This document shows, in pieces, positions 6,629 to 48,949 of a stretch of 64,000 nt of DNA. Below the pieces are notes generated by a model. That model saw only the letters and a list, made by a program, of their open reading frames with translations, did no database searches and was not told where the DNA came from. This stretch comes from an uncultured Prevotellaceae bacterium (lineage in GTDB: Bacteria; Bacteroidota; Bacteroidia; Bacteroidales; Bacteroidaceae). A program made the translations under genes and the position numbers. Where the stretch lies: NCBI GenBank assembly GCA_900315745.1, contig ONAG01000003.1, positions 30,507-94,506 on the forward strand, read 5' to 3'. The number at the start of each line of letters is the position of its first letter. Positions within the stretch are counted from its first letter, which is position 1.

Positions 6629-8002
6629 TCATCCTTTCATCCATTTCACAGTGAACAACCTCACGGTGTGCATGATACCACGCAACGTCAATTCAATTGC
6701 CATTGCAACCCACACACCCACCAAACCATATTGCATGGCGAGGAAATAAGCCAAGGAAAGGCGCACCAGCCACATACTGCACAGACTGATGACGGCAGGC
6801 ATGAGAGTGTCGCCAGCGCCCACACAGACGCATACCGCCACTATCGACGCAGCAAACATCGGTTCGGCAAACGCCTCTATGCGAAGGCAAGAGGCCCCCA
6901 ACAGCTGGATTTCCTCCACCGGGGTCATCAGCGCCATCATCTCTTTTGCAAAGACGAACATCACTGCACCCATCACAGCCATGACAATCATGCCGCTAAA
7001 AAGTGTCATGCGAGAAAAACTGCGGCACAAGTCCTTGCGCCCCGCGCCCACACTCTGGCCTATCAAGGTGGTGGCAGCTTCTCCAATGCCATAGCCAGGC
7101 ATATAGCAAAGGCTCTCAGCCGTGATGCCAAGAGTATTGGCAGCGATGGCGATGTTGCCCAATGGAGCAACAATCATGGTGCTTACAATCTGGGCACCTG
7201 TCATCAGCACTGACTGCACAGCCATGGGCAGACCAATCTTCAAGGCATTCCACAGATAGTCGCCTACCCAGAAGAAATGCTCTCCTACACGGCGCAGCGA
7301 CAACATGGTGTTGCGGAAGACGGCGATATATACCTGCACCGACCCACAAATAACTATTGACAGCGACGTGCCTATGGCAGCACCCATGACACCCAGGTGG
7401 AACTGATAGATGAGAATGTAATTGAAAACCACGTCAAGCACACACATCACCACACTGATGAGGCTGGGAATGCGCATGTTGCCTGTGCATTTGAGCATGG
7501 CGCCGGAAAGGCCATTCAACTGGAAAAAAGGTCCGGAAAGGGCAAAGATAAGGAAATACAAGGAAGCATCACGTGCGATGTCCTCCCCCCCACCGAGCCA
7601 ATATGGCAAAGGTCGTGCTATGGAGACAGCCACCACTAACAACAGCAGGCTGAGCACGGTGGTGACAACAAGCGCATGACGAAACACCTGCCGAGCCTTG
7701 ACAAAGTCGTTGGCACCAATGAAATGCGCCACCTGGACAGAAAAGCCCATGGATGCAGCCCCGGTCAGACTGCCCAGCAACCATGTGGAAGTCTCCACCA
7801 AACCACATGCGGCAGAAGCCTTCTCACCAAGATGCCCCACCATTGCCTGGTCGATGAAAAACATCACGACGCTGGTAATCTGAGCCAAAATGGAAGGTAT
7901 GCTCAACTGCACGATAAGGTTGAGCTTGTCGGCACCCGTCAATGGTCTTCCATCCCGGATGAATTCCAGCAATTCGTCACTTTTGCCATTGAAAACTTTC
8001 AT
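6629..8002 (-). CDS. MATE-family efflux transporter
   Basis: About 12 hydrophobic segments, IDQAMVGHLG, GNMRIP, duplicated halves; start MKVFNG lies 7 nt after TATTTTTG box at 8010-8017. Confidence 0.9.
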   Translation of the reverse strand: MKVFNGKSDELLEFIRDGRPLTGADKLNLIVQLSIPSILAQITSVVMFFIDQAMVGHLGEKASAACGLVETSTWLLGSLTGAASMGFSVQVAHFIGANDFVKARQVFRHALVVTTVLSLLLLVVAVSIARPLPYWLGGGEDIARDASLYFLIFALSGPFFQLNGLSGAMLKCTGNMRIPSLISVVMCVLDVVFNYILIYQFHLGVMGAAIGTSLSIVICGSVQVYIAVFRNTMLSLRRVGEHFFWVGDYLWNALKIGLPMAVQSVLMTGAQIVSTMIVAPLGNIAIAANTLGITAESLCYMPGYGIGEAATTLIGQSVGAGRKDLCRSFSRMTLFSGMIVMAVMGAVMFVFAKEMMALMTPVEEIQLLGASCLRIEAFAEPMFAASIVAVCVCVGAGDTLMPAVISLCSMWLVRLSLAYFLAMQYGLVGVWVAMAIELTLRGIMHTVRLFTVKWMKG

Positions 8003-8066
8003 GAAGATGCAAAAATAGTGCAAAAAACGCTGATACCAAAATTTAAATTAATAAAATAAGAAAGCT

Positions 8067-9638
8067 ATGAAAAAGTATTTTGTTTTCCTGTTCCTTGCAC
8101 TCTTTGGCATGGTCCTCAACCTCCAAAGCCAGCCATTGTTGAGGACAAACGTAGAAACAGGCGCCGTGGAAGGCGTGCTTGTGGAAGGCAACCTTGCCGT
8201 ATATCGCGCCATACCCTACGCAGCACCCCCTGTAGGCGACCTTCGCTGGCGTGAGCCACAACCCGCCACCGCCTGGGAAGGAGTGAGAGTATGCGACAAG
8301 TTTGGTCCTTGGCCACCACAGCCATGGCGCCGCAACAGTCCACGCCCCGAGATGAGTGAGGACTGTCTCTACCTTGGCATTGCCACCCCTGCCACCTCCA
8401 CCACCGACCGCCTGCCTGTGATGGTGTGGATTCATGGTGGTGGTTTCCAAACAGAACATTACGGAGGCGACCTTTGGACGAGCCTTGCCCATCGTGGAGT
8501 GGTTATTGTCAGCATAGAATACCGCACGGGAGCCCTTGGCTTCATGGCACATCCCGAATTAGCGAAAGAGTCGGCAGGAGGTCACAGCGGCAACTATGGC
8601 ATTCTCGACCAGATTTACGCCCTGAAATGGGTTCAGCGCAATATCTCCAATTTCGGTGGCGACCCCTCCAAGGTCACCATCTTCGGTGAGTCAGCCGGAG
8701 CCATCAGTTGCAGCATCCTCTGTGGTTCGCCTCTCGCCAAAGGGCTCTTCAGAGCCGCCATCAGCCAGAGCGGCGGTTCGTTCGCCCCTTGGTCCGACTC
8801 CCCTCGCACGCTCATCGTCAACGCCTCGCAGAAAGGTGCAGAGGCACAAGGACTTGCATTCCAAAAGCACTTGAAAAAGAAGTCGCTCAAGCAACTGCGC
8901 AAGATGGATGCCATGGAATTGTGCGGCAATGATGTTGGCTTTGGTGGTTTCTGGCCTTGTGTCGATGGTTATGTCATCACCGACGACCTCTATAGGAATT
9001 ACGAGCGAGGCGACTACAACGACGTGCCTGTGATAATAATGACCAACAGCGACGAGGGAGTTCTCTTCACCGGCAACATCAAGCCAGAGGAATACAAGGC
9101 GGCAGCCCGTGGCATTTTCGGCAACTACATCGACGAGGCCCTCAAACTCTATCCCGGCAACACCCCCGACGAGGCATTCCACGGCAACGCCGATGCCTTC
9201 CGTGACGTAGGCTTCGCATGGCCATCGTTCGCATGGGCGAACCTTCAAAGCAAGACAGGCAAAAGTCCTGCTTACGCAGCCTTCCTCGCACAACCCTCGG
9301 AGCGCAGTTTCTCACAAGACAAACGCAGGCGGGGCGTGTCGCATGCAGACGACATCCTATATCTCAATGGTGAATTCCAATCAAAACCAGAAAAATATCC
9401 TGCCGAGGCAGCATTGGCAGAGATAATACAGCAATATTGGGTGAATTTCGCCAAGACCTGCAACCCCAACGGCAAAGGTCTGCCCTACTGGCCCACATTC
9501 GATGAGTCAAAACCCACCACGATGCAGTTCAGCAATGGCGCATCGCTCATCATGGTACCAAACAGAGACAAGATAGACTTCCTGGAGCGCTTCTTCAAGA
9601 GCAAAAGAGAAGAAACTGAAAGCCAAAGGGTTAAGTAA
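8067..9638 (+). CDS. Secreted carboxylesterase type B
   Basis: Signal peptide, IPYAAPPVGDLRW, SEDCLYL, WIHGGGF, GESAG nucleophile, NSDEG and SHADD triad motifs. Confidence 0.92.
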   Translation: MKKYFVFLFLALFGMVLNLQSQPLLRTNVETGAVEGVLVEGNLAVYRAIPYAAPPVGDLRWREPQPATAWEGVRVCDKFGPWPPQPWRRNSPRPEMSEDCLYLGIATPATSTTDRLPVMVWIHGGGFQTEHYGGDLWTSLAHRGVVIVSIEYRTGALGFMAHPELAKESAGGHSGNYGILDQIYALKWVQRNISNFGGDPSKVTIFGESAGAISCSILCGSPLAKGLFRAAISQSGGSFAPWSDSPRTLIVNASQKGAEAQGLAFQKHLKKKSLKQLRKMDAMELCGNDVGFGGFWPCVDGYVITDDLYRNYERGDYNDVPVIIMTNSDEGVLFTGNIKPEEYKAAARGIFGNYIDEALKLYPGNTPDEAFHGNADAFRDVGFAWPSFAWANLQSKTGKSPAYAAFLAQPSERSFSQDKRRRGVSHADDILYLNGEFQSKPEKYPAEAALAEIIQQYWVNFAKTCNPNGKGLPYWPTFDESKPTTMQFSNGASLIMVPNRDKIDFLERFFKSKREETESQRVK

Positions 9639-9689
9639 GGCTATTTTTTGAACGCCCAACTTATAATTAACACTTTGTAGAACTAAAAC

Positions 9690-9718
9690 GGGCGGACACC
9701 GACATTTCGGGTCCGCCC
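9690..9718. terminator. Likely bidirectional terminator hairpin
   Basis: gggcggac/gtccgccc plus inner ccga/tcgg, flanked by aaaa on the left and tctttt on the right. Confidence 0.7.
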
Positions 9719-9769
9719 ATTCTTTTATATAAATTAATAAGTTATACTTTCTATTTTACCATGTCCGAG

Positions 9770-9850
9770 TTACTGTTTCTCTATTGTGTTCTCGAACAGA
9801 AATCCTGATGCAATCATTATTGCAAAAATCAATACAATTGTCATGTTCAT
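9770..9850 (-). CDS. Candidate 26-aa hydrophobic small protein MNMTIVLIFAIMIASGFLFENTIEKQ
   Basis: Read manually; A-rich sequence before the ATG; lies between the orphan promoter 10174-10181 and the terminator 9690-9718. Confidence 0.35.
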   Translation of the reverse strand: MNMTIVLIFAIMIASGFLFENTIEKQ

Positions 9851-10173
9851 CTTTTTACCCTTTCTTTAATTTTTAATGAAACAATACGCTGCTACCATCA
9901 CGGCATGAGCGGTTAACCTGAATTTTACACAATCTTTTTTTTTGATGGGTCACTTACCCATAATTGTCATCCTTTATACAATCCTTTTTCCTTAACCAAT
10001 ACCTTTTATCCTTACTTTTTATTTTTATTTCTTGCTTCTCTATTTCTCTTTTTCACATAACATCTTTTCTACCTTAAACCAATACCATGCTAATCTTTTT
10101 TCTTCTTGGCCAAGCCTATTTATATGCTGATCTTTTATTGCTGACCTTGGTCTGTTTTATCCTTTTGACGATG

Positions 10174-10181
10174 CAAAGGTA
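10174..10181 (-). promoter_or_regulatory. Orphan -7 promoter box
   Basis: TACCTTTGCATC on minus strand with no annotated ORF downstream. Confidence 0.6.
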
Positions 10182-10200
10182 GTGCTGTTTGCGCACACAA

Positions 10201-10244
10201 CAAGAAATCTGGCACATTTTTTCGCTAAATATGCCAGATTCTTG
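10201..10244. repeat. Imperfect 13-14 bp inverted repeat just downstream of the 10262 stop codon
   Basis: caagaaatctggca (10201-10214) / tgccagattcttg (10232-10244). Confidence 0.6.
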
Positions 10245-10261
10245 ATGTAGGTCAAAGTTGG

Positions 10262-11914
10262 TCAATCCAAAATTATTGCAACCACAAGGGTTACATCATT
10301 CACGCCTATAGATTGGTTATCGTCCAGGTCCGCGTTCTCAATATGGAAGTTTTCATTCTCGTATCCCAAGATATATTCCACTATCATCATCACGTCGTTC
10401 ACATCCACCACACCATCGACATTCACATCCCCCAAAAGTCCTCTTGGGCGATAGTTGAGCACCACTGGTTGGCTGGGAGCACCCACATTCCCCATCGACA
10501 TGAAAGCAACATCACGGTCGGCATTTGCCTCATACTCCCTCATGGTGTCATAGTCAAAAACTTTGAAATTAACTTCCTGAGACTCCGCCGTGAGACTTCT
10601 CACTCTCATGATACCATAATCAGCGGTCTCGAAGACAGCATATCCCACACATTCGTCACCGATGAAAGCCCCTACAGCCATGTTGGAATAGTCGTCAACC
10701 CTTTCTCCGTTCTTCTCCACCACAGCATATACAGTCATGTCGTATTGGTAATCAAAAGCATTGGTGTGCCATGGAGTCCGCACGATATTGCGTGAGCCAC
10801 CAGTCCAAGTGTCATCACCATCCACCTTTATAGGCGTGGTCTCCATGCCCATTGCCACAATATTGACCTCTCCCGCCGTCTGCTTCAAGTCGGCATCCAC
10901 ATAAATGCCCCCACATCTTAACGTGTCGCCCATGGCATCCATCATTCCATCTCCAAGGGCGTAGATGTTGGTCACACCACCACTGATGTTCACGAAGCCA
11001 CCATTGAGCACGGTGGACAGTTCACTAATCCTCTTTCCTTTGATTGCCTTGCTGCCTTTTCCAGTCACCATGACATGGATGTCACCCCCTGAAATGTCAA
11101 CAGAGTAACGAGCACGTATGCCTTCACTGTCATCCCCCGTTACCGACACGTTCACCGTTCCCCCAGTCACAGCCACTATGCTGTCAGCCTTCAAGGCTGT
11201 GGCTGCGTCGCCCACATTCAGGCTCAGCGCCCCACCATTTATTCTGATGGTTCCATAGTCGTCGGTGTCGATGCCATCACTGCCCACATTGGTGATGTCC
11301 ACCGTGCCACCATCCATAAGGAAGTAGTTGTTGCCATCCCCCGGGTTGCCTTTGCCGCAATGTATGCCATCACTGACAGCGCCGAGAATGTTTATGCATC
11401 CAGTAGAACTTTTCAGTTCCATGTATTCCTTGGCGCAGATGGCATGTTTCAGCCTTCCCGTCACATTCAGAGTCCCCGACAATTTGAATTCGGGATGCCC
11501 CTTGAAATACAATGCCGCCTTTTGCGCCCCCATTGGAGAGTCTGCCAAGGAGCTAACAGTGCCTTCAACCAATTCCACGGCGACCCGCTTGCCACACTCC
11601 ACATCAATAGCCGCACCACCATGAGCGTTGGTGAGTTGCACGCCATCCAGACGTAGCGTAAACTTGTAGGAGCCATAAATGGTGAGCGAACCATCATCAG
11701 AAGAGCCAGACACATTATATATATACTCTGTTGTGGTGGTTGTGGAACTAATTACCACATTAGCCCCCGAAACGGAATAGGTGACCCCTTGCACGTCATC
11801 TGGAACAGTCACCTCTGCCGTCGTGCCATGGTATTTCACCTCCACCATGCCCTGGGCGTGCAATCCGCATACCGCCATGACCAACATCACCAAAGAAAAA
11901 ATCTTTTTCTTCAT
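10262..11914 (-). CDS. Secreted Cthe_2159-like (DUF4353) beta-helix carbohydrate-binding protein with C-terminal dockerin-like module
   Basis: Signal peptide; YxxSGSSxDGSL, LxLDGVxLTN, repeated DGIH/DGID/GGT beta-helix turns; C-terminal GDVNVDGVVDVNDV...ADLDDNQSIGVNDV tandem EF-hand pair (10262-10432). Confidence 0.75.
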   Translation of the reverse strand: MKKKIFSLVMLVMAVCGLHAQGMVEVKYHGTTAEVTVPDDVQGVTYSVSGANVVISSTTTTTEYIYNVSGSSDDGSLTIYGSYKFTLRLDGVQLTNAHGGAAIDVECGKRVAVELVEGTVSSLADSPMGAQKAALYFKGHPEFKLSGTLNVTGRLKHAICAKEYMELKSSTGCINILGAVSDGIHCGKGNPGDGNNYFLMDGGTVDITNVGSDGIDTDDYGTIRINGGALSLNVGDAATALKADSIVAVTGGTVNVSVTGDDSEGIRARYSVDISGGDIHVMVTGKGSKAIKGKRISELSTVLNGGFVNISGGVTNIYALGDGMMDAMGDTLRCGGIYVDADLKQTAGEVNIVAMGMETTPIKVDGDDTWTGGSRNIVRTPWHTNAFDYQYDMTVYAVVEKNGERVDDYSNMAVGAFIGDECVGYAVFETADYGIMRVRSLTAESQEVNFKVFDYDTMREYEANADRDVAFMSMGNVGAPSQPVVLNYRPRGLLGDVNVDGVVDVNDVMMIVEYILGYENENFHIENADLDDNQSIGVNDVTLVVAIILD

Positions 11915-11926
11915 TATTGGAAGTTT

Positions 11927-14900
11927 TTATTTAATATTTACCTTTCTACAAGTGCCATCTGCAAATTTCACCACATAAAGTCCAGAGGGCAGGTCTTTTG
12001 AGCGAGAAGAGACCTTCACGCCACCAATGCTGTAGAATCCCTCGATGGTAGAGTCCGCGCCATTGGCAATGTCTGCAAGTCCTGTAGGCACGTTTTCACC
12101 CTCCACCATCTCGCCTATGGCAAGCACGCATGGAGACGACATGCTGCCTTTCACCATTGGTTGGAAAGCAAAGCGTTCAGCTATCTCATACATAGAGCCA
12201 TCCATCTGGTCGAGAGCTCTGAAATACAGGTCTTCCCCTCCCTCGCCATAAATAGTGACGAAGCCAAGGTCATCGACCCATTTGCCGGCACCTCTACACA
12301 CGTCGTCGGAATAAGCCACGATGATGAATCGCCCCGACTCCACAGGCACTCCGTCCTTCTCAAGCACAGCCACCATGCCCATCACATTAGGATAAGCGTG
12401 CTTGTCCACTCCAAATTGTCGTTCCATGAGTCCGCTTCTCCGAGCCTTGTTGATGTTCACAGGCACCATCGGACTTGCAAACCTCAATATTTTCGCCCTA
12501 TTGGTGAAGAGCAGGTATCCATGTCCTGTCTCCATTGCGTTCAAGGAACCGGTCCACGTTCCATCAGCAAAGATGGAGAAGCCATCCTGACCCACTATCT
12601 GGTCGCCATCATCGGCAGGATAGTCAGCAAGAGCCGCTGCAAGAGTCTGAGTCCCATCCACAGGATAGCCTATCCAGTTCCACCCGGGGAGGAGAGCGAT
12701 AGGCATGTCGCTCCTGCACGAAGCCACATCGCTGGTGAACAAGTCTGCGTCGTCCATCTTCACCTTGTACAAATTGCCTGCTGCCATGCTCTTGAGCGAG
12801 CCCACCATTCCGTAAGTGGCATCGAGGAAAGCCTCCTTGTCATGTCCCACTATTCTTGCGGCCTTGTTGGAGAATTTGCCAACAGCGACATCCTCCGACA
12901 AGTTGTGCGACACCCAGTTCCATCCTTTAGCCAAGTTGAGGGCAAACGGACTATCGCTGAGCATCAAGTTCTGGTCCTCTCCCACCAAAGAGTCGCAAGA
13001 GAGAATGGTGTTTGTGCGCTCTATAGTTGGTTTCGACATCTTATAGAAATACCGTCCACCGTCAGGATAGCGCCCCACCGTCTGGTCGCCCCCATGTGCG
13101 ATGTAGGTCATTCCCTCCACGAAGGAGCGCATGGCAGGATGAGAGGCGAAGTAATGGCTGTTGCGTGCCACGAAGTCATCGCTGCTGCTTACCAACACCA
13201 TGTTGCCATCAACATTTGCCAACTTGAAATTGGTGTGTATCTGCGAGATGCTTTCCAATTTGTCCGCCCATACTATCAAGTGTCCACCAGCCGGTATGAT
13301 GGTATTCACCACACCGTTGCCCTCAGGGATTTGGTATTTCAGTGGTTGGTCGATATCGTCGCTAACATAAAGTCCAGCCACATCGAGGGACTCGTCGGTG
13401 TTGTTGAAGAGTTCGAACCAGTCGTTTTTCTTCATCCAGTCATTCACATACACGCTGTTGCCGGCACTCACTTCGTTCACCTTGACAGGCGTGGCGATGT
13501 CCCTCACCAAATCGGCATCAGAAGCCATCGCCTTGAAAGAAGCCACGAGCGTGAGATTGCCTTTCGTGGAGATGTCAAAATCCTTTTCAGAGGACACAAC
13601 GCCTCCATTTTCGTCGAGCCATCCCTGGAAGACATACCCTTCAGGAGCAGATGCCGTGAGGACCATTGGTGCGAACAGCGTACCATCGAATCTACCCGTG
13701 GGCACATCCAGTCCGTTCACCTGCAAAGAAGCGGTATTTATGTTGGAAGACAACTTCACTCGCTGTCCTGCCGTATTCAGTTGCGCGAGGTTCCAGTTTT
13801 CCAGTCCATTCATCATGGTGTTGCGCCTTGTCTCTGTTAGCACCCCTTTCATATACCCTGCCGTAGGTTCAGTGGACAGACCCTCAAGAGCCAGTGCCGG
13901 GTTCATCTCGTCGGACATGCGGTTGATGATTTCCGCACAGCGACCAGGTTCAAACACGCTTCCCCCCACCAGGCAGAAGGTGTCGATAAATTGCTTTCGG
14001 AAGGTATCGTTTTGCATCATGTTGAGGAATATCGATACCAGAGGGCAGTTGCCACTATTAGCTATGTGTGTGAAAGCATAAGCGTCGAAGCGCAAAGCCT
14101 GGTCGATGTCGAAGAGCACAATATGGAATTTCCCATCATTCCCCTTGAATGCCTTGCAATTGTTTCCTGGCCAGTCGTCGCCACCAAGGAATATCTGTGT
14201 TGCCATGTAGTTGATGAACTCGTCGATGTCAACCAAGTCGCATATTTGCTTGTAGGTACTTTCCTGAGCAGCCGAAGCAGACAGTTCCCTCCATCTGTTG
14301 AAAGCGTCAAGATTGCCCACCTTCAGGTCTATGCCCCCACCAAGTTCCATTTGGTCCATCAAGTCGGTGTCGATGCCGTAGTTGGAGTATGCGAAATGTT
14401 TGTTGCTTGGCTCTCGCATGTTGAGCATTCCCGTATATTGTCCGTTGATGAAGCCATGCACAGGCATGTAGTCCTGGCAGTCGAGATGGAAACCACTGGA
14501 GATGATGATGTGTTGCAGCGAGGCATCCTTTATGCGGCACAAGAGGTCGTTGCCGCCATTTCTCACTTGCAGCACCTTGTGTTTGAGATATGGTTTGTTT
14601 CCAAAGAAAGGATAATCCATATAGTTGAGGTTTTCGTACACCTTCTGTGCATTCAACTTGAAGTTGTAAGGATACCACGAGCGGCTCCAACCACCAAAAC
14701 GAGACATATCGACTTCCTGGCTGTAAGTTTCGCCTTTGTTACCGTCGATATAGTCGAAATTGGCGGGGCGATCCCATTCCATGTTCCAGTTGCAATTGAA
14801 GTTGATGCCACTTCCCGTAATTCCGTTTGTGCCGGTGACCAATATGCCCATTTTGTCATCGTAGAGGTTGACAGGAGCAGACACCACCGAAAGGACAGGC

Positions 14901-17662
14901 AGCATGTAGTCCTTGTCGTTGTAAATATAGGAGCATGTCTTCACCGCACTTGGCAACATACCCTGTTTGAACAGTCTCAGTCGCAGAATGGTGGTTTTGT
15001 TCACCTCAAAGGTGCCGTCGCTGCTCACCATCCCGTTTGTTTCCGTTGGTGTGGAGCCGTCAGTAGTATAATACAACGTCGCCCCTTGTGGAATGTCCAC
15101 ATTCATAGTGAACGCCCCCTTGAAGAGTTGCGACTCATGGCTTACCACGGGCATTTCCAATCGTGTATAATTCGAAGCATTTATGAACACCTTGCAATAA
15201 GCATTGCTTTTCCCTGGCGTGGGATACGCCGTAATTGCCCATCCGTCGTGACCGTCGATGATTCTTGTATATGACGTACGTGTCACGGCAGGTGGATACG
15301 TCTCACTTGCTATGACATTGCCATTGGCATCGCTTAGGTAAATAGTTCCTCCGTCCATGTCGAGCTTGAAGTCCACTTGCCCGTCGTATGTCTCACGGTG
15401 GTCGAACCATATCAGTCCGAAGCCTTTAGCAGGCACAGCCCCACTTTTTGATGTAAGGCGGCATTTCAGAAGATTGGAGGCATCATCGCTAACATAAAGG
15501 TTTCTCAACGATACACCTTTGTCTGAAGGATTGTATAGTTCGATATATCCTCCGTAGTTGTATGACGGGTCAACAAACATATCTGTGTTCGACACTTGTA
15601 TCTCATTTATTTTCAATGAATACACGTTAGGATATCCATTCCCTACGGTAATGGGAATGAAAGCCATCAACGTCCCACCGTCAGCACCGCATGCCCTCAC
15701 GGTGATGGTGGCGCTTCCCTCACCTCGTGCCGTCAACAACCCATTGGCATCCACCTCAACAACCGAAGTGTTGGATGATGACCATAGGAGCGTAGTATCC
15801 GAAGCCTCTGCCGGCATCACCTTGGCGCTCAACTGTCTCTTTTCATAGACAACCATGTCGATGGTATTCCTATCCACATTGATTCCTTCCACATAGACAA
15901 GACTGTCCTTTCCAAGATATTCGAGTCTGAAGTTGTCCCAACAAGCCCAGTCGTATTTGTACCCCAATGATTTTTTCACTCCCACGGTCAGCGTGCCATC
16001 AGTGACAGGCACAAGCAGTTCCACAGGATATTCTCCATTGCTGAACGCCTCTGTCGCCCCACCTTGAGTGTTGGGCACCCATCCCAATTCTGTTTCGTAG
16101 TCGTCGGTATGTGTCTTTTCTTCGTGAGCGTAGTCAAAAGGAGAAGGCAGACCAACGGCAACGCGGTTTCCATACAGCATGGCGAGGTGTTTCTCCAATC
16201 CTAATTTTCTGCTTATCACAGCATACGGTATGGTGTACATGGCATACATGTTGTTGGCATCGTTTTCCTCCCATCCTCCACCATAATAAGACTTGTGTTG
16301 CTCCTCTTTATAGTCGCCATATCTATAAAAGCCCTGGGCTTTCAGACGATACCAGCCATTTGGCAGACCATTGATTTTTTGGTTTACATCAAACGTAGTG
16401 TTGTATTTCTCGGCATTGGTGTTGTATCCCCATCCACCGATGACAGGTGCCCCCGCCCACCCGCTCGTATTTTGGAACTGAGGATTGACAATCTTTGATG
16501 TCATGTCGATGGGATTGTCGAAGGAAGCATTGTCATAGTCCGTATTGCCATTTCCTCCGCTCACGTCATAGTCACTATTGTCACCGAGAGCCAGCAGAGT
16601 GAGTTCGAAGTTGTCCCAAATGGTCCAGTCGCAGCCATCCTGCCGTGTCTTCCTCACGCCAATGGTGAGATGGTGGTCGGTGACATTGACCACCACCTGG
16701 TTGTCGGTATAAAGTCCAGCCGAGAAGGCGTTGGCGGCTTCGGTCATGGAGAAGGGAAGATCTGAATTTCCTCCTTCCAGCCCCAGTTGTATCATATGCT
16801 CCCTCTCACTTACAATACTTTGCAAGGAAGTCTCCACATCGTTGGCATAAAGTTTTGAATACAGTTGTTCCATTCCCCATTGATGTGTTTGCACTGCCAC
16901 GCTGTTGGTGTTGCGATTTGTATTGTTATACCGATAGAAGCCTTGTATCTTGAGACGATACTGTCCATTAGGCACATTCTCCAAAGTCTGATTAACGTCG
17001 AAATTGGTGTTCCACACCTCGGCGCAAAAGTTACCATTGCCATTGCCGCCTGCCTCACCACCAACAGCGAATCCACTTCCTTCCCAATTGTTAGGTCCGA
17101 AATTACGGTCGAATCGAGGGTTGGAAATCAAGAAAGTGGCATCCACGGCATGATTGGCTGAGAGCATGCCTGTGAGCATCTGCTCTCGTGTGAGGAACTC
17201 CCACTGTGCGGCATCGCTTGCAGGGTTTTGCAAGTTGGTGGCGACAATTTTCGAACCATCATATCCCACATATCCCCCATTGGGATTGGGCATGACGTAG
17301 AAGCCATCCTGTCCGGCACGAATAGCCCATGCCTCACTACTCCTATCGAGATACAAATAGCCATTGTCCCACCCCAAGCATCTGTCTCCAGCCTCGCCAA
17401 AGCCAGTAAAAATATAGTAGGAACCCGATGCTGCCGCCTCAATGGTCATGGCAAGAGCATGTTCGCTCAAAACTGCCTGAGTACCCCACAAGGCGCCGGC
17501 ATTGAGATAAAGTCCCGAGGCTTTATTTCGCAAATAATATTCGCCCCTTTTCAATGTGTTCTGAGACAGGGCGTACACACTGCAAAGACTGAATATGAAT
17601 GACAACAGCAGCAACCGGCTGCACATAAGACGTTTAATCATTTTCATATAAGGTGTTTTCAA
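11927..17662 (-). CDS. 1911-aa secreted modular CotH-family kinase protein (lectin-like + 2 NPxF modules + Big_2 + lamin-tail + FN3-associated + CotH + lamin-tail + T9SS-like tail)
   Basis: INEIQVSN/YIELYNP and VNEVSAGN/WFELFN lamin-tail motifs; IYYTTDGSTP-type YYTTDGSTP; DEFINYM...DWPGNN...LFDID CotH motifs; C-terminal GFYSIGG...GLYVVK. Start may be at 17647 or 17641. Confidence 0.75.
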   Translation of the reverse strand: MKTPYMKMIKRLMCSRLLLLSFIFSLCSVYALSQNTLKRGEYYLRNKASGLYLNAGALWGTQAVLSEHALAMTIEAAASGSYYIFTGFGEAGDRCLGWDNGYLYLDRSSEAWAIRAGQDGFYVMPNPNGGYVGYDGSKIVATNLQNPASDAAQWEFLTREQMLTGMLSANHAVDATFLISNPRFDRNFGPNNWEGSGFAVGGEAGGNGNGNFCAEVWNTNFDVNQTLENVPNGQYRLKIQGFYRYNNTNRNTNSVAVQTHQWGMEQLYSKLYANDVETSLQSIVSEREHMIQLGLEGGNSDLPFSMTEAANAFSAGLYTDNQVVVNVTDHHLTIGVRKTRQDGCDWTIWDNFELTLLALGDNSDYDVSGGNGNTDYDNASFDNPIDMTSKIVNPQFQNTSGWAGAPVIGGWGYNTNAEKYNTTFDVNQKINGLPNGWYRLKAQGFYRYGDYKEEQHKSYYGGGWEENDANNMYAMYTIPYAVISRKLGLEKHLAMLYGNRVAVGLPSPFDYAHEEKTHTDDYETELGWVPNTQGGATEAFSNGEYPVELLVPVTDGTLTVGVKKSLGYKYDWACWDNFRLEYLGKDSLVYVEGINVDRNTIDMVVYEKRQLSAKVMPAEASDTTLLWSSSNTSVVEVDANGLLTARGEGSATITVRACGADGGTLMAFIPITVGNGYPNVYSLKINEIQVSNTDMFVDPSYNYGGYIELYNPSDKGVSLRNLYVSDDASNLLKCRLTSKSGAVPAKGFGLIWFDHRETYDGQVDFKLDMDGGTIYLSDANGNVIASETYPPAVTRTSYTRIIDGHDGWAITAYPTPGKSNAYCKVFINASNYTRLEMPVVSHESQLFKGAFTMNVDIPQGATLYYTTDGSTPTETNGMVSSDGTFEVNKTTILRLRLFKQGMLPSAVKTCSYIYNDKDYMLPVLSVVSAPVNLYDDKMGILVTGTNGITGSGINFNCNWNMEWDRPANFDYIDGNKGETYSQEVDMSRFGGWSRSWYPYNFKLNAQKVYENLNYMDYPFFGNKPYLKHKVLQVRNGGNDLLCRIKDASLQHIIISSGFHLDCQDYMPVHGFINGQYTGMLNMREPSNKHFAYSNYGIDTDLMDQMELGGGIDLKVGNLDAFNRWRELSASAAQESTYKQICDLVDIDEFINYMATQIFLGGDDWPGNNCKAFKGNDGKFHIVLFDIDQALRFDAYAFTHIANSGNCPLVSIFLNMMQNDTFRKQFIDTFCLVGGSVFEPGRCAEIINRMSDEMNPALALEGLSTEPTAGYMKGVLTETRRNTMMNGLENWNLAQLNTAGQRVKLSSNINTASLQVNGLDVPTGRFDGTLFAPMVLTASAPEGYVFQGWLDENGGVVSSEKDFDISTKGNLTLVASFKAMASDADLVRDIATPVKVNEVSAGNSVYVNDWMKKNDWFELFNNTDESLDVAGLYVSDDIDQPLKYQIPEGNGVVNTIIPAGGHLIVWADKLESISQIHTNFKLANVDGNMVLVSSSDDFVARNSHYFASHPAMRSFVEGMTYIAHGGDQTVGRYPDGGRYFYKMSKPTIERTNTILSCDSLVGEDQNLMLSDSPFALNLAKGWNWVSHNLSEDVAVGKFSNKAARIVGHDKEAFLDATYGMVGSLKSMAAGNLYKVKMDDADLFTSDVASCRSDMPIALLPGWNWIGYPVDGTQTLAAALADYPADDGDQIVGQDGFSIFADGTWTGSLNAMETGHGYLLFTNRAKILRFASPMVPVNINKARRSGLMERQFGVDKHAYPNVMGMVAVLEKDGVPVESGRFIIVAYSDDVCRGAGKWVDDLGFVTIYGEGGEDLYFRALDQMDGSMYEIAERFAFQPMVKGSMSSPCVLAIGEMVEGENVPTGLADIANGADSTIEGFYSIGGVKVSSRSKDLPSGLYVVKFADGTCRKVNIK

Positions 17663-44527: not shown

Positions 44528-44626
44528 TTATGTAGCTTTAATGATTACAAGAAACATTAAAAAAGAAAAAATAGTGGGAAAAAAAGAAAAAAGAAACTGA
44601 TTGCTTGCATATTCACTATTTTTTTA

Positions 44627-44634
44627 TACTTTTG
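44627..44634 (+). promoter_or_regulatory. -7 promoter box of cassette 1
   Basis: TACTTTTGCATC; places the real start at 44697. Confidence 0.7.
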
Positions 44635-44696
44635 CATCGCATTATATGTGCTATAAAGACAATCATGATGGTTTTTTAAATTTTACAAGTACAAAT

Positions 44697-45977
44697 ATGA
44701 GGAAAAAACTACTTTTCATCATGTTGGCGTTATTGGCTTGCTTTTCCAACGTCAATGCCGACCCAACCAACGACAGGATTACGATAAAGGATGTAACTGT
44801 CAAGCGAGGCCAACAAGCCCTTGTCACGATGAAATATGACATTACATACGACGATGACAACCAAAGGTATAGAGGATTCCAGATTCTCATGAGACTTCCC
44901 CAAGGCATAAAATTGGTCAACGACACTGTCTTTCCTGGCAAAGACCTAATACAGGCTGTACCTAAAGCTCACATCAAATGCAACACCAAAAGTAATGGAG
45001 AAACGGTAATCCTCGGTTTCCAAATTGACAATAAAGATTACCCACAAGGTCAAGGTGAACTGTTGAATTTTGTTATAGAAGCAGATGCAAGTGCCGATTT
45101 GGGAACATTAACTTGCACCACGACACATATAGAATTTTCAGAACATCCGAGTGGTAATGCTGTAATTTTGGATAACTCTTCTTTCAATATCAACGTAGTC
45201 GAATATGAGAGAAGGGTAATCGATGAAAACGATACTGATATCGCATTAGCCAGTGTGTGGCAAGAAGACATTGAGGTGAAGCGTTCGATAAAAGCAGGCA
45301 TTTGGTCCACACTTTGCTTGCCATTCCCCATGACTACCGCACAAGTCAAGGAAGTGTTTGGAGAAAATGTGCAATTGGCACAGTTCAAAAGCAACTCCAC
45401 AGAATACAAGCAAAGAGAACTTTCCAATGGAACCATCCGCGAAGATACAGTTTTTGTAATCAACTTTGAAAGCTGCAACCTTGCAGAGGGCATAATAGCG
45501 AACCATCCCTATATCATCAAGAGTGAGAATTCGTTTGAAAGCTTCAATGTGGATAACGTAATTGTTGAACCAGACGAAGAAGGGGCATTTATTGAATATG
45601 AGGAACAAATAGCCCCACGTCGCACAGAATGGCGTGGATCCATGTTTGGAATTCTCAATAAACAGGTTATACCAAACCATGCCCTCTACTTAAGCGACAA
45701 CAAGCTATATTCGTCAAATAACACGACCATGAAAGCTTTCAGATGTTGGCTTGAAATTAAAGGATGGGAAGCTATTTATTCCAACATCTCCAGCCTTACC
45801 TTTGCAGTTGACGGAGAGACCACAGGAATTGAGGGACTGACAGTGAACGGCAAGGAAATTGTGGATGGCAAGGTGTACACCTTGAGTGGAGCTTGTCTTG
45901 GCAATGCCCAAGACCTTCAAGGGAAACTACCTCGTGGAATCTATATCGTGAACAACAAGAAAGTGATTGTCAAATAA
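44697..45977 (+). CDS. Secreted protein: cohesin-like N-domain + Prevotella WSTLCLPF beta-domain + T9SS-like tail (paralogue 1)
   Basis: Signal peptide MRKKLLFIMLALLACFSNVNA; RGFQILMRLPQGI...GELLNFVIEA cohesin-like pattern; tail TTGIEG...VYTLSG...RGIYIVNNKKVIVK. Confidence 0.65.
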   Translation: MRKKLLFIMLALLACFSNVNADPTNDRITIKDVTVKRGQQALVTMKYDITYDDDNQRYRGFQILMRLPQGIKLVNDTVFPGKDLIQAVPKAHIKCNTKSNGETVILGFQIDNKDYPQGQGELLNFVIEADASADLGTLTCTTTHIEFSEHPSGNAVILDNSSFNINVVEYERRVIDENDTDIALASVWQEDIEVKRSIKAGIWSTLCLPFPMTTAQVKEVFGENVQLAQFKSNSTEYKQRELSNGTIREDTVFVINFESCNLAEGIIANHPYIIKSENSFESFNVDNVIVEPDEEGAFIEYEEQIAPRRTEWRGSMFGILNKQVIPNHALYLSDNKLYSSNNTTMKAFRCWLEIKGWEAIYSNISSLTFAVDGETTGIEGLTVNGKEIVDGKVYTLSGACLGNAQDLQGKLPRGIYIVNNKKVIVK

Positions 45978-45993
45978 ACAATACTAAAAAATC

Positions 45994-46194
45994 ATGACAA
46001 AATTGAAATATAAGGCTCCAGAGGCAGAGTTGATAGGTCTTTCCACATACGAGATTTGCATCATTTCATTTGATTTAAACGTGGGTGACTTACCATCAGA
46101 ATTCGGAGAATTCGGAGGTACAGACGATGGTACCCACAACCCAGATGCAAACAGATGGGATCATTTCGACAACAGTTTTGACTCCAAATTATAA
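45994..46194 (+). CDS. 66-aa small protein with N-terminal YxxP motif and acidic/Trp C-terminus
   Basis: MTKLKYKAPEAELIGL...ANRWD; 16 nt after the upstream stop, A-rich initiation region. Confidence 0.7.
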   Translation: MTKLKYKAPEAELIGLSTYEICIISFDLNVGDLPSEFGEFGGTDDGTHNPDANRWDHFDNSFDSKL

Positions 46195-46209
46195 AAATAA
46201 CATTAAATA

Positions 46210-46243
46210 GGCTTTCAAAAGGTGAAAAAACCTTTTGAAAGCC
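46210..46243. terminator. 14-bp hairpin closing cassette 1
   Basis: ggctttcaaaaggt / accttttgaaagcc. Confidence 0.75.
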
Positions 46244-46324
46244 TCCAAAACAAAAAAAAGGCAACAACCCCAAAAAAAAGAGAAAAAAAAAAGAAAATTT
46301 TATGTTGGTTTGAGATATTTTTCT

Positions 46325-46332
46325 TATATTTG
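46325..46332 (+). promoter_or_regulatory. -7 promoter box of cassette 2
   Basis: TATATTTGCACC. Confidence 0.7.
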
Positions 46333-46441
46333 CACCGTCGTATGAAAAACGGCAGCTACTTTCGCTACATATTCTTTTCTTATTTTAAGTAGAAACTGTA
46401 CACGGTCACGAGACAACATCATTTATTAACACATATCAGAT

Positions 46442-47704
46442 ATGAAACAGAAACTACTATTACTTGCAATGGGTCTTTTTGCTGCCATGGGCACAATTAA
46501 GGCCGACAACGTGTACTTCACGGTTGACAAAGTTGACGTGATGCAAGGCAAATCAGCCAAAGTCACAATGTGCTACAATGCAGATGGTCAAACAGAGTAC
46601 AAAGGAGCACAGGTGGAGTTCATCATGCCAGACGGACTTACTGTTACTTCTGCAGAATTAGGTGCTGCTGTGAAGGCCAACAACCCTGAGATGACTTTGC
46701 AATTCAACCCAAAGCGTGAAAGCGACGACCACGCCGTGTTCCTCGCATTCCAGATTGCTCTTACCCCAATGCCAATGGGTGAAGGTGTAGAACTCATGTC
46801 ATTCACCGTTCAGGCTGATGAGGATTGCCCACTTGGAGAATATCCAGTAGAGACTTTGAAGATTGAATTTGCTTCTGACAACAAGGCTACATTCGGCCCA
46901 GAGACAATCATTTTCAATGTGATTCCATACGCTGCAAGAGTTCTTGCTGACACCGAAACAGACGTTCCTGTTGCTTCTGAAGCTCCAGAAGATGTAATCG
47001 TACAACGTACAATCAAGGGTGACACATGGTCAACCATCTGCTTGCCATTCAGCTTGACAGCAGACCAACTGAAGGAAATCTTTGGTGAGACAGTACAATT
47101 GGCAGACTTCACCAGCACTGAATTTGTTGGCGATGCTCTTCAAGTTAACTTCGAACGCACAGACATCAATGAAGGTTTGGAAGCCAACCATCCATATTGT
47201 ATCTATTCAGAGAACCAGCTGAGTGAATTCACAGTAACCGACGTAATGGTTTCTCCAGACGAGGAAGCTGCAAGAATTGATGTTAACAATGGCAAGTCTG
47301 GAAGACAAAGAGTAGATTATGGTGTATTCTTCGGAACTCTGAAGGCTGGTCAATATACTCCTGACGAGGAAGGCCTTTGCTTACTCTATCTCAAGGACAA
47401 CATGTTCTACTACAATGAGACCTCCATCCAGATGAACGCTTATCGCGGATTCTTCGAGTTCTACGATTTCGACCCATCATTGGAGAACTACTACGGAACT
47501 GATGGTACAGACAAAGCCGTGAACAACGTGATCTTCGCTATTGATGGAGAAGCTACTGCTATCGAAGGCATCAACTTCAGCACTCGTGCAACAGGTGAAG
47601 TTTACAATTTGAATGGCATGTACATGGGTCGTGCAGAGGACGTGATGAACAGTCTCCCACGTGGTATCTATGTAATCAACAACAAGAAGGTAGTTGTAAA
47701 ATAA
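46442..47704 (+). CDS. Secreted protein: cohesin-like N-domain + WSTICLPF beta-domain + T9SS-like tail (paralogue 2)
   Basis: Signal peptide; KGAQVEFIMPDGL...ELMSFTVQA; aligns end to end with the 44697 product; tail RGIYVINNKKVVVK. Confidence 0.65.
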   Translation: MKQKLLLLAMGLFAAMGTIKADNVYFTVDKVDVMQGKSAKVTMCYNADGQTEYKGAQVEFIMPDGLTVTSAELGAAVKANNPEMTLQFNPKRESDDHAVFLAFQIALTPMPMGEGVELMSFTVQADEDCPLGEYPVETLKIEFASDNKATFGPETIIFNVIPYAARVLADTETDVPVASEAPEDVIVQRTIKGDTWSTICLPFSLTADQLKEIFGETVQLADFTSTEFVGDALQVNFERTDINEGLEANHPYCIYSENQLSEFTVTDVMVSPDEEAARIDVNNGKSGRQRVDYGVFFGTLKAGQYTPDEEGLCLLYLKDNMFYYNETSIQMNAYRGFFEFYDFDPSLENYYGTDGTDKAVNNVIFAIDGEATAIEGINFSTRATGEVYNLNGMYMGRAEDVMNSLPRGIYVINNKKVVVK

Positions 47705-47731
47705 TAAATAATAAAAAGAAAGGAAACAATT

Positions 47732-47914
47732 ATGAAGAAGACATATTTGAATCCCTCATGCAAGTACATTGAATTCAAGTCAGAAGGCATCATGAACGGA
47801 ACAAATCCTGCTGGTCCTGGTGGCGGTCCTGGTGCTGGTGGCCCTGGTGGTCCTGGTGACGGTGGTGGTGACATCAACCAGTTCAATGTATGGGGTGACG
47901 ACGAAGAAGAATAA
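47732..47914 (+). CDS. 60-aa small protein with YxxP motif, Gly/Pro-rich core and WGDDEEE end
   Basis: MKKTYLNPSCKYIEFKSEGIMNGT...FNVWGDDEEE; A-rich initiation region. Confidence 0.75.
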   Translation: MKKTYLNPSCKYIEFKSEGIMNGTNPAGPGGGPGAGGPGGPGDGGGDINQFNVWGDDEEE

Positions 47915-47933
47915 ACAACAACCCTTAATTATC

Positions 47934-47972
47934 AACCTCCCCTGCGGTTCTGCCGCTTGGGGAGGTTTTTTA
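47934..47972 (+). terminator. Intrinsic terminator closing cassette 2
   Basis: aacctcccc...ggggaggtt stem with inner gcgg/ccgc, followed by a T-run. Confidence 0.8.
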
Positions 47973-47998
47973 TTCCAAGACATGAAATAAGAATAAGC

Positions 47999-48949
47999 AT
48001 GTTCGCATTTGCACTCACCATTCTCTTCACCTTTGTGGAACTAAATTGCGAGAATTTCTTTGACTATTCACATGATGAAGGGAAAAATGACATGGAATAC
48101 CTGCCTAACTCCATCAGGAAATGGGACAAGGGCAAATACTGGCACAAGGTAAACCAAATAGCCCAAGAGATAATATCATGCGGAGGTGAGGGAACCGAAT
48201 GGACGCTACCCGACATGGTAGCCTTGACGGAGGTGGAGAACGACAGCGTATTAAACGACCTCACATGCCATGGTCCACTCCGCAATGCCGGCTACCACTA
48301 TGTGATGACCAATTCGGACGACGAACGTGGCATCGACGTCGCCCTGCTCTACTCCCCCTATTCCTTTCGTCTCATAGACAGCCATTCCCTGCGTGTAGCC
48401 CCACCCAAAGGACACCATGCCACCCGCGACATACTCCACGCCTATGGAGAATTGCTCTCCGGCGACACCCTCCACATTTTCGTAGTACACGCACCAAGTC
48501 GAGTAAATGGAAAACGTGCCACAAAACCATACCGCCTCAAGGTAGCCGACCGCATCTGTGAAGCTGTAGATTCAATACGAGCCACAGGAAGCAAGGGAAA
48601 CATCATCGTAGCTGGCGACTTCAACGACTATTCAGGCGATGAAGCCTTGCAGCGTCTGATTGCCCACGGCATGGCGCACCTATCAAAAGATGCAACAGGA
48701 AAGAACGGGGCACGAGGAACTTACAAGCATCAAGGCAAATGGGGCAGCCTCGACCACATCTTTGCAGATGTAAAAATGGCATCAAGAACGGTGTCGTGCG
48801 AGATACACGACGCTCCTTTCCTATTGGAGGATGACGAGAAATACGGAGGAGTGCAGCCACGCCGCACCTACATAGGCTATCGCTATCACCGTGGCTACAG
48901 CGACCACCTGCCCCTTGTAGCAAGATTGACATTAGACAAAAAACAATAG
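47999..48949 (+). CDS. Endonuclease/exonuclease/phosphatase family protein
   Basis: NCENFFD, LTEVEN, RGIDVALLY, HAPSR, AGDFND, LDHIF, YSDHLP. Confidence 0.9.
   Translation: MFAFALTILFTFVELNCENFFDYSHDEGKNDMEYLPNSIRKWDKGKYWHKVNQIAQEIISCGGEGTEWTLPDMVALTEVENDSVLNDLTCHGPLRNAGYHYVMTNSDDERGIDVALLYSPYSFRLIDSHSLRVAPPKGHHATRDILHAYGELLSGDTLHIFVVHAPSRVNGKRATKPYRLKVADRICEAVDSIRATGSKGNIIVAGDFNDYSGDEALQRLIAHGMAHLSKDATGKNGARGTYKHQGKWGSLDHIFADVKMASRTVSCEIHDAPFLLEDDEKYGGVQPRRTYIGYRYHRGYSDHLPLVARLTLDKKQ

Follow-up and report, generated by a model that had tools for sequence, protein, structure and literature searches.

Two tandem cassettes and their transcription

The window, a stretch of 64,000 nucleotides of DNA from an uncultured Prevotellaceae bacterium (a rumen Prevotella), holds the same unit twice on its + strand: a TAnnTTTG motif, a gene for a signal-peptide protein of 426 or 420 aa, a small ORF, and a strong hairpin. 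In cassette A, a pattern scan finds a putative -7 promoter motif of the Bacteroidetes type (TAnnTTTG, TACTTTTG; 44627-44634), whose function is read from the motif only. The ORF list then gives bigA (44697-45977; 426 aa from MRKK), with a signal peptide, a cohesin-like domain, a region that we call domain X (about 45240-45770), and a short T9SS-like tail. Beginning 16 nt after the bigA stop, smA (45994-46194) encodes a 66-aa acidic mini-protein, which a leave-out HMM recognises as a divergent member of a YxxP...GG.D...W family. A perfect 15-bp hairpin lies 3' of it (46209-46244; -23.6 kcal/mol, z -6.4).

Cassette B has its own candidate -7 motif from the same scan (TAnnTTTG, TATATTTG; 46325-46332), followed by the ORF of the secreted protein bigB (46442-47704; 420 aa). 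In its AF2 model, the signal peptide covers residues 1-21 and the cohesin fold residues about 22-166. Domain X spans residues ~178-352 (46973-47497; WSTICLPF...ANHPY.I...AYRGFFEF) and is beta-rich in the model, and the C-terminal tail (residues ~353-420, 47498-47701), T9SS-like at sub-threshold level, ends in ...VYNLNGMYMG...LPRGIYVINNKKVVVK. After a gap of 27 nt comes smB (47732-47914), picked by the same leave-out HMM. It encodes a 60-aa acidic mini-protein with a middle of low-complexity Gly/Pro/Asp sequence, and an intrinsic terminator follows (47934-47973; -25.1 kcal/mol, z -5.05), made of a G+C-rich stem-loop (47934-47967) and U6. The two large proteins are paralogues (36% identity over the full length, E 7e-84), sharing a hydrophobic signal peptide and the C-terminal end ...GIYI(V)NNKKV(I/V)VK. 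This layout had been described in an earlier note on the same DNA; every element is found where that note placed it, and all the peptide strings it quoted are present.

The metatranscriptome contig X20 (46343-47975) spans both bigB and smB, from the promoter through to the terminator. It starts 11 nt downstream of the cassette B -7 motif and ends at the terminator, and bigB is well covered by rumen metatranscriptome contigs: bigB and smB are on one transcript. Cassette A is less clearly self-contained, because no U-run follows its hairpin on the + strand and a second RNA contig (X7, 46049-46473) passes through it. The earlier description of two self-contained cassettes with strong hairpins thus holds for the strength of both hairpins, and less clearly for the separateness of cassette A.

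Architecture of the upstream proteins

The AF2 model of bigB has a mean pLDDT of 84.8. Its N-terminal domain matches type I cohesins in Foldseek (E 2e-7 to 1e-5, TM 0.67-0.77 normalised to the cohesins), and the fold therefore bears out the first description of these proteins as cohesin-like. At the Pfam gathering score neither bigA nor bigB matches PF00963 (Cohesin), which is found in two of their relatives, P0056 and P0062; some relatives carry dockerins.

Domain X is a beta-rich unit of ~170 aa just before the short tail, with the pattern WSTxCLPF...PYIIK...KAFRAYF. In bigB it is modelled with pLDDT above 90. It has no match in Pfam, and none in the PDB by Foldseek (best E 0.05, TM ~0.1). 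Its invariant residues are W, P, G, F, T, N, and R, and it is acidic, with a median charge of -8; bigA is included in alignments A1 and A5. The N-terminal parts mounted on this one C-terminal module are diverse: cohesin, BspA-LRR with dockerin, C10 peptidase with Spi inhibitor, DUF5013, Big_2, and calycin.

The tail had been called T9SS-like. It does resemble the T9SS type A sorting domain, with strings such as ...VYNLNG... and ...GIYVINNKKVVVK that recall T9SS motif D/E, but it fails to reach the TIGR04183 model: bigA and bigB have no match at E<=10, and among 10 relatives a single one scores 13.5 bits, against a curated cutoff of 23 bits. A SprA_N gene is present near the locus of one relative.

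A family of small proteins that follows domain X

Between themselves, smA and smB have no BLASTP similarity. When the family HMM is built from other members and run against 1,200 window ORFs, it picks out these two alone (smB E 5e-10, smA E 3.6e-5, next best 2.8), a pattern that goes beyond chance. Both are members of a large and hitherto unnamed family of ~60-aa acidic leaderless proteins, as profile searches indicate: at least 1,687 representatives at 50% identity and 442 clusters at 90% identity, with E-values down to 1e-27. Members measure 46-100 aa and are all free-standing, no fusion to another domain being found among the top 150 matches. The family has no match in Pfam, NCBIfam, PHROG, or PDB. 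Its consensus is MKKTYxQP..EVV....MICxS.GVTS..GIGYGGVDxxGxxDPASRR..DVWDDEEEE, or as a pattern MKKxYxxP...S...G[YF]GG.D..G..DP...W[DE]n. The YxxP pair singled out at first sight is sound, with Y5 and P8 invariant across the family (alignments A2 and A4). The Gly/Asp/Pro core described as "hypervariable" is confined to the smB clade; in most of the family the segment is a conserved GIGYGGVDxDGxxDP. Over 12 residues, the hydropathy of the small proteins peaks at about 1.1, as against 2.6-3.1 for the signal peptides of the large ones, in agreement with the initial view that they have no Sec signal peptide.

Selection on the encoded amino acids maintains the small gene. For the invariant Y, P, S, G, and D residues, family members use a mixture of synonymous codons, with both AGY and TCN for Ser. 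Strain variants differ by indels of 6 and 9 nt that preserve the reading frame, smB occurs as in-frame versions of 60, 62, and 63 aa, and smA is intact in two syntenic strains (L090 and L091). Changes between close strains are mostly non-synonymous and lie in the middle segment (dN/dS 0.5-1.5, from very few sites).

The neighbours of homologues were surveyed in 740 kb of de-duplicated related loci, where about 13,000 ORFs were scanned with the family HMM. Matches are confined to one position: for 73/74, a gene with domain X or the tail is found no more than 200 nt to the 5' side, on the same strand and with a median gap of 21.5 nt. As the loci were gathered with the large protein as bait, the apparent linkage is inflated; two look-ups seeded by the small protein returned the same context, the other neighbours being variable housekeeping genes. 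The small ORF follows 70/89 domain X genes as compared with 3/28 genes that have the tail only (odds ratio 31, p = 1e-10). Since about 1 in 5 domain X genes is followed directly by a terminator or another gene instead, the small ORF is not universally required.

The two partners also diverge together. Distances between small proteins correlate with those between their domains X (Mantel r = 0.57, reached in 0/2,000 permutations), slightly more so for the C-terminal two-thirds of the small protein (r 0.63), and with the tail r is only 0.11. Small-ORF subtypes follow those of the upstream proteins. The small gene as such is indifferent to the passenger domains upstream. The subtype bearing the DxDGxxDP motif, which half of the family lacks, accompanies cohesin- or dockerin-bearing upstream proteins in 27/29 cases, plus L014 and L029. 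Such co-divergence can stem from the common inheritance of adjacent genes, with no contact needed. Together, these comparisons of sequence and gene order strongly support as partner a specific ~170-aa C-terminal domain of otherwise unrelated surface proteins, rather than the cohesin domain or the tail.

A probable dedicated partner for domain X

Because the family stands almost only behind one C-terminal domain, its members are most likely dedicated partners and not precursors of an antibiotic-like peptide. The earlier note had offered a dedicated partner of the upstream protein as one of two readings; the 70/89 linkage, the correlation of 0.57, and the single transcript bear out the genetic pairing and narrow it to domain X. 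The best reading is that domain X is a surface-protein sorting or anchoring module and the mini-protein its co-transcribed partner, with a mode of action that we infer. On balance, the family is probably a genetically dedicated partner of domain X that would serve as an escort, holdase, or small subunit. The mini-protein would be translated from the same mRNA right after the segment of domain X and tail, and would bind this segment one-to-one. Its invariant N-terminal Y-x-x-P and beta-strand would probably add onto a domain X sheet, and the Gly/Asp loop (DxDGxxDP, with a calcium-binding look) and the Trp-acidic tail would help binding. Once bound, it would act as a cargo-specific escort, holdase, or small subunit controlling how the module is folded, exported, or anchored at the surface. 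In the window, the pair would have been duplicated as a whole, giving two copies with cohesins, each accompanied by a mini-protein that co-diverged with it. The compartments are a difficulty: no export signal is recognisable in the mini-protein, whereas its partner is exported through Sec. The two would therefore have to meet transiently in the cytoplasm, unless the mini-protein is exported by some other route. As domain X is itself acidic, simple charge pairing is not the basis.

Database and literature searches found no described function for this protein pairing, as the earlier note had supposed, and the nearest known systems each differ from it. T9SS type B CTD cargo pairs with an adjoining cognate PorP/SprF-like partner, as in sprB-sprF (PMC9143113, PMC12618676). 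There, as here, a Bacteroidota surface protein has a C-terminal module for sorting or anchoring that is paired with a dedicated gene next door, and there are many paralogous pairs per genome with varying passenger domains. However, PorP/SprF-like proteins are outer-membrane beta-barrels of ~300 aa with signal peptides, and the protein described here is a 60-aa, acidic, leaderless one that tracks the domain upstream of the tail, the tail itself falling below both T9SS model thresholds. Dedicated secretion chaperones, such as those of class I in type III secretion, are likewise small, acidic, and encoded beside the one secreted protein they serve; they are cytoplasmic and bind a defined region of their cargo, as is predicted here too. 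They are dimers of ~130-aa subunits for one-step secretion systems, and in our case the putative bound region is C-terminal; we know of no such dedicated chaperone for Sec plus T9SS cargo. In Bacillus Rap-Phr a protein gene is also followed by a co-transcribed, co-diversifying small peptide gene, in paralogous cassettes, but Phr peptides are made with Sec signal peptides and return to act on a partner in the cytoplasm, so that the topology here is reversed. Finally, cohesin-dockerin pairs (PF00963, PF00404) come to mind from the cohesin fold of the bigA and bigB N-terminal domains and the dockerins of some relatives. Unlike a dockerin, the small ORF tracks domain X and not the cohesin, and has no detected dockerin similarity.

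A more ambitious form of the dedicated-partner reading, which we hold only tentatively, is that domain X and the mini-protein form an unrecognised two-part sorting and anchoring device of Prevotellaceae, a new C-terminal module distinct from the canonical T9SS CTD, whose surface display would depend on a cargo-specific 60-aa escort translated from the same mRNA. The escort would pass the module to the export machinery, or would exit by a non-Sec route and lock on with calcium.

It is rather unlikely that the mini-protein is instead an extracellular accessory peptide, a miniature dockerin-type adaptor or cap that leaves the cell by a non-Sec route (ABC, T1SS-type, lysis, or vesicles), folds on calcium through DxDGxxDP, and docks on surface-exposed domain X. 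Acidic, Gly/Asp-rich DxDGxxD sequences are typical of calcium-binding extracellular proteins such as thrombospondin type 3 and RTX-like proteins, the motif-bearing subtype keeps company with cohesins and dockerins, and calcium could bridge two acidic partners. But the likeness to calcium-binding repeats is by eye only, Dockerin_1, TSP_3, EF-hand, and RTX models have no match at E<=10 in 36 family members, and the motif is absent from half of the family. No transporter gene is seen linked to the loci, and export of the mini-protein is a prediction.

The other reading of the earlier note, that of a RiPP precursor to be processed in trans, is unlikely, and so is an exported signalling peptide of this kind. 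The YxxP leader would be bound by an RRE-type domain encoded elsewhere, of lasso-like or radical-SAM type, and the modified core would be the Gly/Asp segment or the Trp tail. The YxxP element of RRE-dependent leaders binds by beta-strand addition, and the family resembles lasso and other such leaders in being short, lacking a Sec signal, and having an invariant N-terminal Y-x-x-P followed by a strand-like stretch. In canonical members GIGYGGVD, which lies at a variable distance from Thr, could form a lasso ring closed between G1 and D8, with Trp as the plug. Against this, no Thr seems to be fixed at -2, and smB and L001 have low-complexity Gly/Pro/Asp there, incompatible with a defined ring. 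RiPP cores are usually variable, and this supposed core is the family's most conserved segment. Among 36 members tested with NCBIfam lasso precursor models none reaches threshold; one (1/36) grazes NF033528 lasso_cyano at E 0.065. No double-glycine (PCAT) leader is recognisable either: there is a GG in [YF]GG, but the preceding Gly/Ser/Thr-rich residues do not fit LSxxELxxIxGG. No lasso, RRE, rSAM, or C39 gene, including any C39-peptidase ABC transporter, lies beside a locus with annotated neighbours, which are housekeeping or surface-protein genes, and the initial remark that no modifying enzyme is encoded here stands for the largest window ORFs. A trans-processed precursor also has no reason to occur in several copies per genome, each tied to one surface-protein domain. 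In a published survey, rSAM loci are common in Prevotellaceae, but a lasso cyclase (LasC) occurs in 0/195 of their genomes (PMC10352776, Table 1).

Less probable still is an immunity-like or inhibitor pair. Domain X would then have an activity that damages the producing cell from within, and the leaderless acidic protein encoded downstream would block this activity until export. The order of a C-terminal domain and then directly a small, leaderless, co-varying ORF, with several paralogous pairs per genome, would suit such a pair. The invariant residues of domain X do not, however, look like a catalytic set, passengers are of adhesin or enzyme types (LRR, cohesin, C10 protease), a constant domain X behind variable N-terminal domains is the reverse of polymorphic toxins, and the small ORF is missing at 1 in 5 domain X genes. 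As for chance, non-functional 3' UTR ORFs retained only through overlap with terminator or RNA elements, the small size, the dissimilarity of the two window copies, and a close-strain dN/dS not clearly below 1 speak for it. Against it stand >1,600 representatives of constant length, profile E-values, synonymous codon diversity, in-frame indels, and matches at a single position, and family conservation rules it out.

The rumen and many guts are dominated by Prevotellaceae, whose way of displaying proteins on the cell surface is poorly understood. The present analysis delineates a mini-protein family of very large size and a domain whose fold is confidently modelled but unmatched, neither of them named so far; a simple genomic rule joins the two and ties them to proteins with cohesin or dockerin modules, LRR adhesins, and C10 proteases. 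A YxxP motif alone is insufficient for calling a RiPP precursor. Should the mini-protein act as a cargo-specific escort or subunit, it would be an added component of Bacteroidota surface-protein biogenesis and a handle for engineered surface display. If the two-part device is real, rumen Prevotella would follow a novel rule in fitting their surface with proteins that bear cohesins, dockerins, LRRs, and proteases.

Layout and transcription of the two cassettes

Two tandem units lie on the + strand in the region 44,600-48,000 of the window. Cassette A opens with a Bacteroidetes-type (-7) TAnnTTTG motif, found by pattern scan at 44627. It is followed by bigA (44697-45977), an ORF for a secreted cohesin-type protein of 426 aa with a signal peptide, and, 16 nt past its stop, by the small ORF smA (45994-46194, 66 aa). 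The hairpin 3' of smA (46209-46244; fold -23.6 kcal/mol, z -6.4) is a perfect 15-bp palindrome whose 3' side is A-rich and not U-rich, leaving the + strand without a U-run. Cassette B has the same arrangement: a second such motif at 46325, bigB (46442-47704, 420 aa, again with a signal peptide), smB 27 nt past its stop (47732-47914, 60 aa), and a hairpin with U6 at 47934-47967 (-25.1 kcal/mol, z -5.05). bigA and bigB are paralogues (36% identity, E 7e-84); BLASTP yields no alignment between smA and smB, and Pfam and NCBIfam models give no match that reaches threshold for any of the four products. The flanks are housekeeping, with a prephenate dehydrogenase gene upstream, and genes for an endonuclease/exonuclease/phosphatase-family protein, SRP54 and FolD downstream.

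The window sequence is present in three rumen metatranscriptome runs. In run X20, a contig of 1,633 nt (46343-47975) carries bigB and smB on one molecule; it starts 11 nt past the -7 motif and stops at the terminator. The contigs from runs X19 and X7 have one end inside bigB or slightly upstream of it and the other early in smB (at 47786 and 47745, respectively), before its Gly/Pro tract. Contig depth peaks at bigB, where the word depth in X7 is 57.8 vs values below 10 in bigA and the flanks, which suggests that bigB is highly expressed in vivo. Another X7 contig (46049-46473) passes through the hairpin after smA, so that transcription of cassette A may continue into cassette B. This evidence comes from assembled contigs, in which DNA carry-over is possible; that the X20 contig starts by the promoter and stops at the terminator speaks for an RNA origin.

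A shared C-terminal module behind variable passengers

The AlphaFold2 model of bigB, made from a 42-row alignment, is confident (mean pLDDT 84.8). Residues ~22-166 are modelled as a cohesin fold, and their Foldseek match to type I cohesins (E 2e-7, TM 0.67-0.77 normalised to these) bears out the 'cohesin-like' call of the earlier note. Residues ~178-352 form a beta-rich domain with pLDDT above 90, here called domain X, which carries the motifs W-S/N-T-x-C-L-P-F, A-N-x-P-Y-I-I-K and K-A-F-R-A-Y-F. Modelled alone, domain X gave nothing significant in a PDB fold search (best E 0.05, TM ~0.1); a PDB sequence search with the C-terminal module found nothing, and a homology search with domain X alone returned short fragments only, without names. 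A BFVD fold search of the module returned one virome-contig 'bacterial repeat domain' protein (E 1e-5, TM 0.40), which added no function.

The last ~65 residues of the big proteins resemble motifs D and E of the T9SS type A sorting domain (...VYNLNG... and ...LPRGIYVINNKKVVVK). TIGR04183 is not matched by the big proteins of the window, and one of ten relatives reaches 13.5 bits vs a cutoff of 23. Since the tail lies below this cutoff, the label 'T9SS-like' given to it earlier stands as a resemblance to motifs D and E, and not as membership. In the fetched locus L085, a gene with SprA_N (T9SS translocon; 7877-12189) lies downstream of a big-small pair, as the second gene after it. The lineage therefore possesses a T9SS, and the closeness of this gene to the pair is probably coincidental.

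Eighty genomic loci were fetched, each encoding a relative of the big protein and all from rumen or gut Prevotellaceae-type MAGs. Typical Prevotella-type pairs also occur in bins labelled Flexilinea, Acidaminococcaceae and Lachnospiraceae (L062, L069 and L076), labels that probably reflect mis-binning and not a broader taxonomic range. The upstream proteins are 300 to 1,700 aa long and have only their C-terminal ~240 residues in common. Their N-terminal parts differ, and include cohesin, BspA-type LRR with dockerin, C10 peptidase with Spi inhibitor, DUF5013, Big_2 and calycin-like domains. Type I dockerins, in some cases together with a cohesin, are present in relatives with the same module (proteins P0013 and P0016; L014 1019-5074; L029 1145-3484; L081 2007-5975), which hints at a cohesin-dockerin network among rumen Prevotellaceae surface proteins. 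Elsewhere in the window (10262-17662, - strand), a protein of 1,910 aa has CotH kinase, lamin-tail, Big_2 and Fn3-associated domains, and its gene adjoins that of a Cthe_2159-type carbohydrate-binding protein; a Cthe_2159 gene is present in L081-L084 too, ahead of the domain X gene.

The mini-protein family and its linkage to domain X

In most of the 80 loci, an ORF of 45-74 aa with a common pattern lies -4 to 113 nt past the stop of the big gene (median 21.5 nt). When the small-ORF HMM was run against ~13,000 ORFs of at least 30 aa in 757 kb, matches were confined to the position behind the big gene, in loci for which the big protein had been the bait. A family profile search gave 442 clusters at 90% identity. 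At 50% identity, it gave at least 1,687 representatives scoring E<=1e-3 (223 with E<=1e-10). Every member is 46-100 aa long, and among the best 150 matches, none is fused to another domain. An ORF of 158 aa behind a domain X gene (L017, 5178-5652) has a family-like start (MKKIYMTPEMEMV) and a long unrelated C-terminal part, and could be either a fused variant or a chimera of the assembly. The consensus of these acidic mini-proteins is MKKTYxQPxxEVVxxxxxxMICxSxGVTSDxGIGYGGVDExGxKDPASRRxxDVWDDEEEE, and none of the 61 rows of an alignment deviates at Tyr5, Pro8, the GG pair, Gly42 or Trp54. The family has no relative in Pfam, NCBIfam, PHROGs or PDB, and no name in any source searched. A metagenome scan with the small-ORF alignment yielded 277 pattern matches and only 2 confirmed loci, because the divergent smB served as the confirmation reference.

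The invariant positions use all synonymous codons (four for Pro, AGY and TCN for Ser, mixed for Gly and Asp). This diversity was used in place of pairwise dN/dS (NG86), whose values of 0.07-1.5, from a handful of sites, are uninformative because no more than ~6 pairs are close enough and the others are saturated. The syntenic strain variants L090 and L091 keep both small ORFs, and the Gly/Pro tract of smB (window 47800-47875; L090 5291-5479; L091 2837-3028) varies by in-frame indels only, giving proteins of 60, 62 and 63 aa. Amino-acid changes between strains fall mostly mid-segment in both small ORFs, with the N-terminus and the Trp-acidic end fixed. When the window peptides and their closest relative were left out of the HMM and 1,200 window ORFs were searched with it, smB scored E 5e-10 and smA E 3.6e-5 (next best 2.8); the two are therefore homologous via the family despite having no direct match. 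Judged at the sequence level, the codon mix, in-frame indels, strain retention and leave-out HMM together show selection on the small ORFs as proteins. A spurious small ORF is ruled out by conservation.

Once redundant loci had been removed, each ORF of all loci was scored with one HMM for domain X and another for the tail. A family member lies within 200 nt behind 70 of the 89 domain X genes vs 3 of the 28 tail-only genes (odds ratio 31, Fisher p = 1e-10). Look-ups seeded by the small proteins P0121 and P0206 led to this arrangement as well, and the genes around it were unrelated. A small ORF is missing behind roughly one domain X gene in five, where a terminator or the next gene comes directly. 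A single small-ORF match has no domain X or tail gene upstream; it belongs to a tandem pair of family members in L037 (2883-3089 and 3215-3421) flanked by domain X genes, the second of which (3431-4627) has no small ORF behind it.

Co-divergence was assessed from distance matrices of 58 pairs by Mantel test with 2,000 permutations. The small protein follows domain X (r 0.57), and its C-terminal two-thirds do so with r 0.63, values reached in 0 of 2,000 permutations each; against the tail, r is 0.11 (52 of 2,000). Neighbouring genes may diverge together like this without contact between their products. Of 29 small ORFs with the motif [YF]GG.D, 27 stand behind cohesin-type proteins of ~400 aa and two behind the dockerin-bearing proteins of L014 and L029; those without the motif are mostly behind long proteins. 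Domain X and tail, then mini-protein, form a two-gene module that is co-transcribed, co-inherited and co-diverging whatever the passenger domain, and that recurs several times per genome.

A proposed partnership and its alternatives

We infer that the mini-protein binds domain X. In RRE-leader complexes, elements such as a YxxP motif with a strand bind by beta-strand addition, and the invariant YxxP and strand of the mini-protein would add to domain X in the same manner. The Gly/Asp loop, which has a likeness to DxDGxxD calcium sites, and the Trp-acidic tail would aid this binding. A signal peptide is absent from the mini-protein: over 12 residues, hydropathy peaks at ~1.1, vs 2.6-3.1 for the big proteins. 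Since it lacks this signal and would be translated from the same mRNA just after the domain X module, its simplest role would be that of a cargo-specific cytoplasmic escort or holdase, or of a small subunit, affecting folding, export or anchoring. The weak point of the escort reading is a mismatch of compartments between a Sec-exported partner and a signal-less mini-protein, and export of the latter by an unknown route, followed by calcium-dependent extracellular docking, is a live alternative. Two further ideas about the pair were rejected: that the mini-protein is a strand split off from the big protein (profile-profile comparison aligns the MKK start only), and that the small protein and domain X are complementary in charge (both are acidic, with a weak correlation, rho -0.27).

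The earlier note had set a RiPP precursor processed in trans beside a dedicated partner of the upstream protein. The YxxP motif and the absence of a Sec signal do fit a precursor, and rSAM enzymes could act in trans, but no biosynthetic or transporter gene was found near the loci with annotated neighbours or among the ten largest window ORFs scanned. Moreover, lasso models are unmatched by the small family, and the putative core is its most conserved segment and is low-complexity in smB. Among 1,136 Bacteroidales genomes, one from Paludibacteraceae is reported to have a lasso cyclase, and the 195 from Prevotellaceae to have none (PMC10352776, Table 1). An immunity-like inhibitor of domain X would fit the gene architecture, but the invariant residues of the domain are not catalytic-looking, and it is the constant and not the variable part of these proteins.

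For a mini-protein that partners domain X, the closest parallel in logic is found in T9SS type B cargo and its adjacent cognate PorP/SprF-like partners (PMC9143113, PMC12618676), although these partners are large outer-membrane proteins, unlike the mini-protein. Dedicated secretion chaperones and Rap-Phr cassettes likewise combine a protein gene with a small co-diversifying neighbour. No sequence or fold is common to the pair and any of these three systems. The pair would represent a known logic, that of a cargo with its dedicated accessory, made of two undescribed families.
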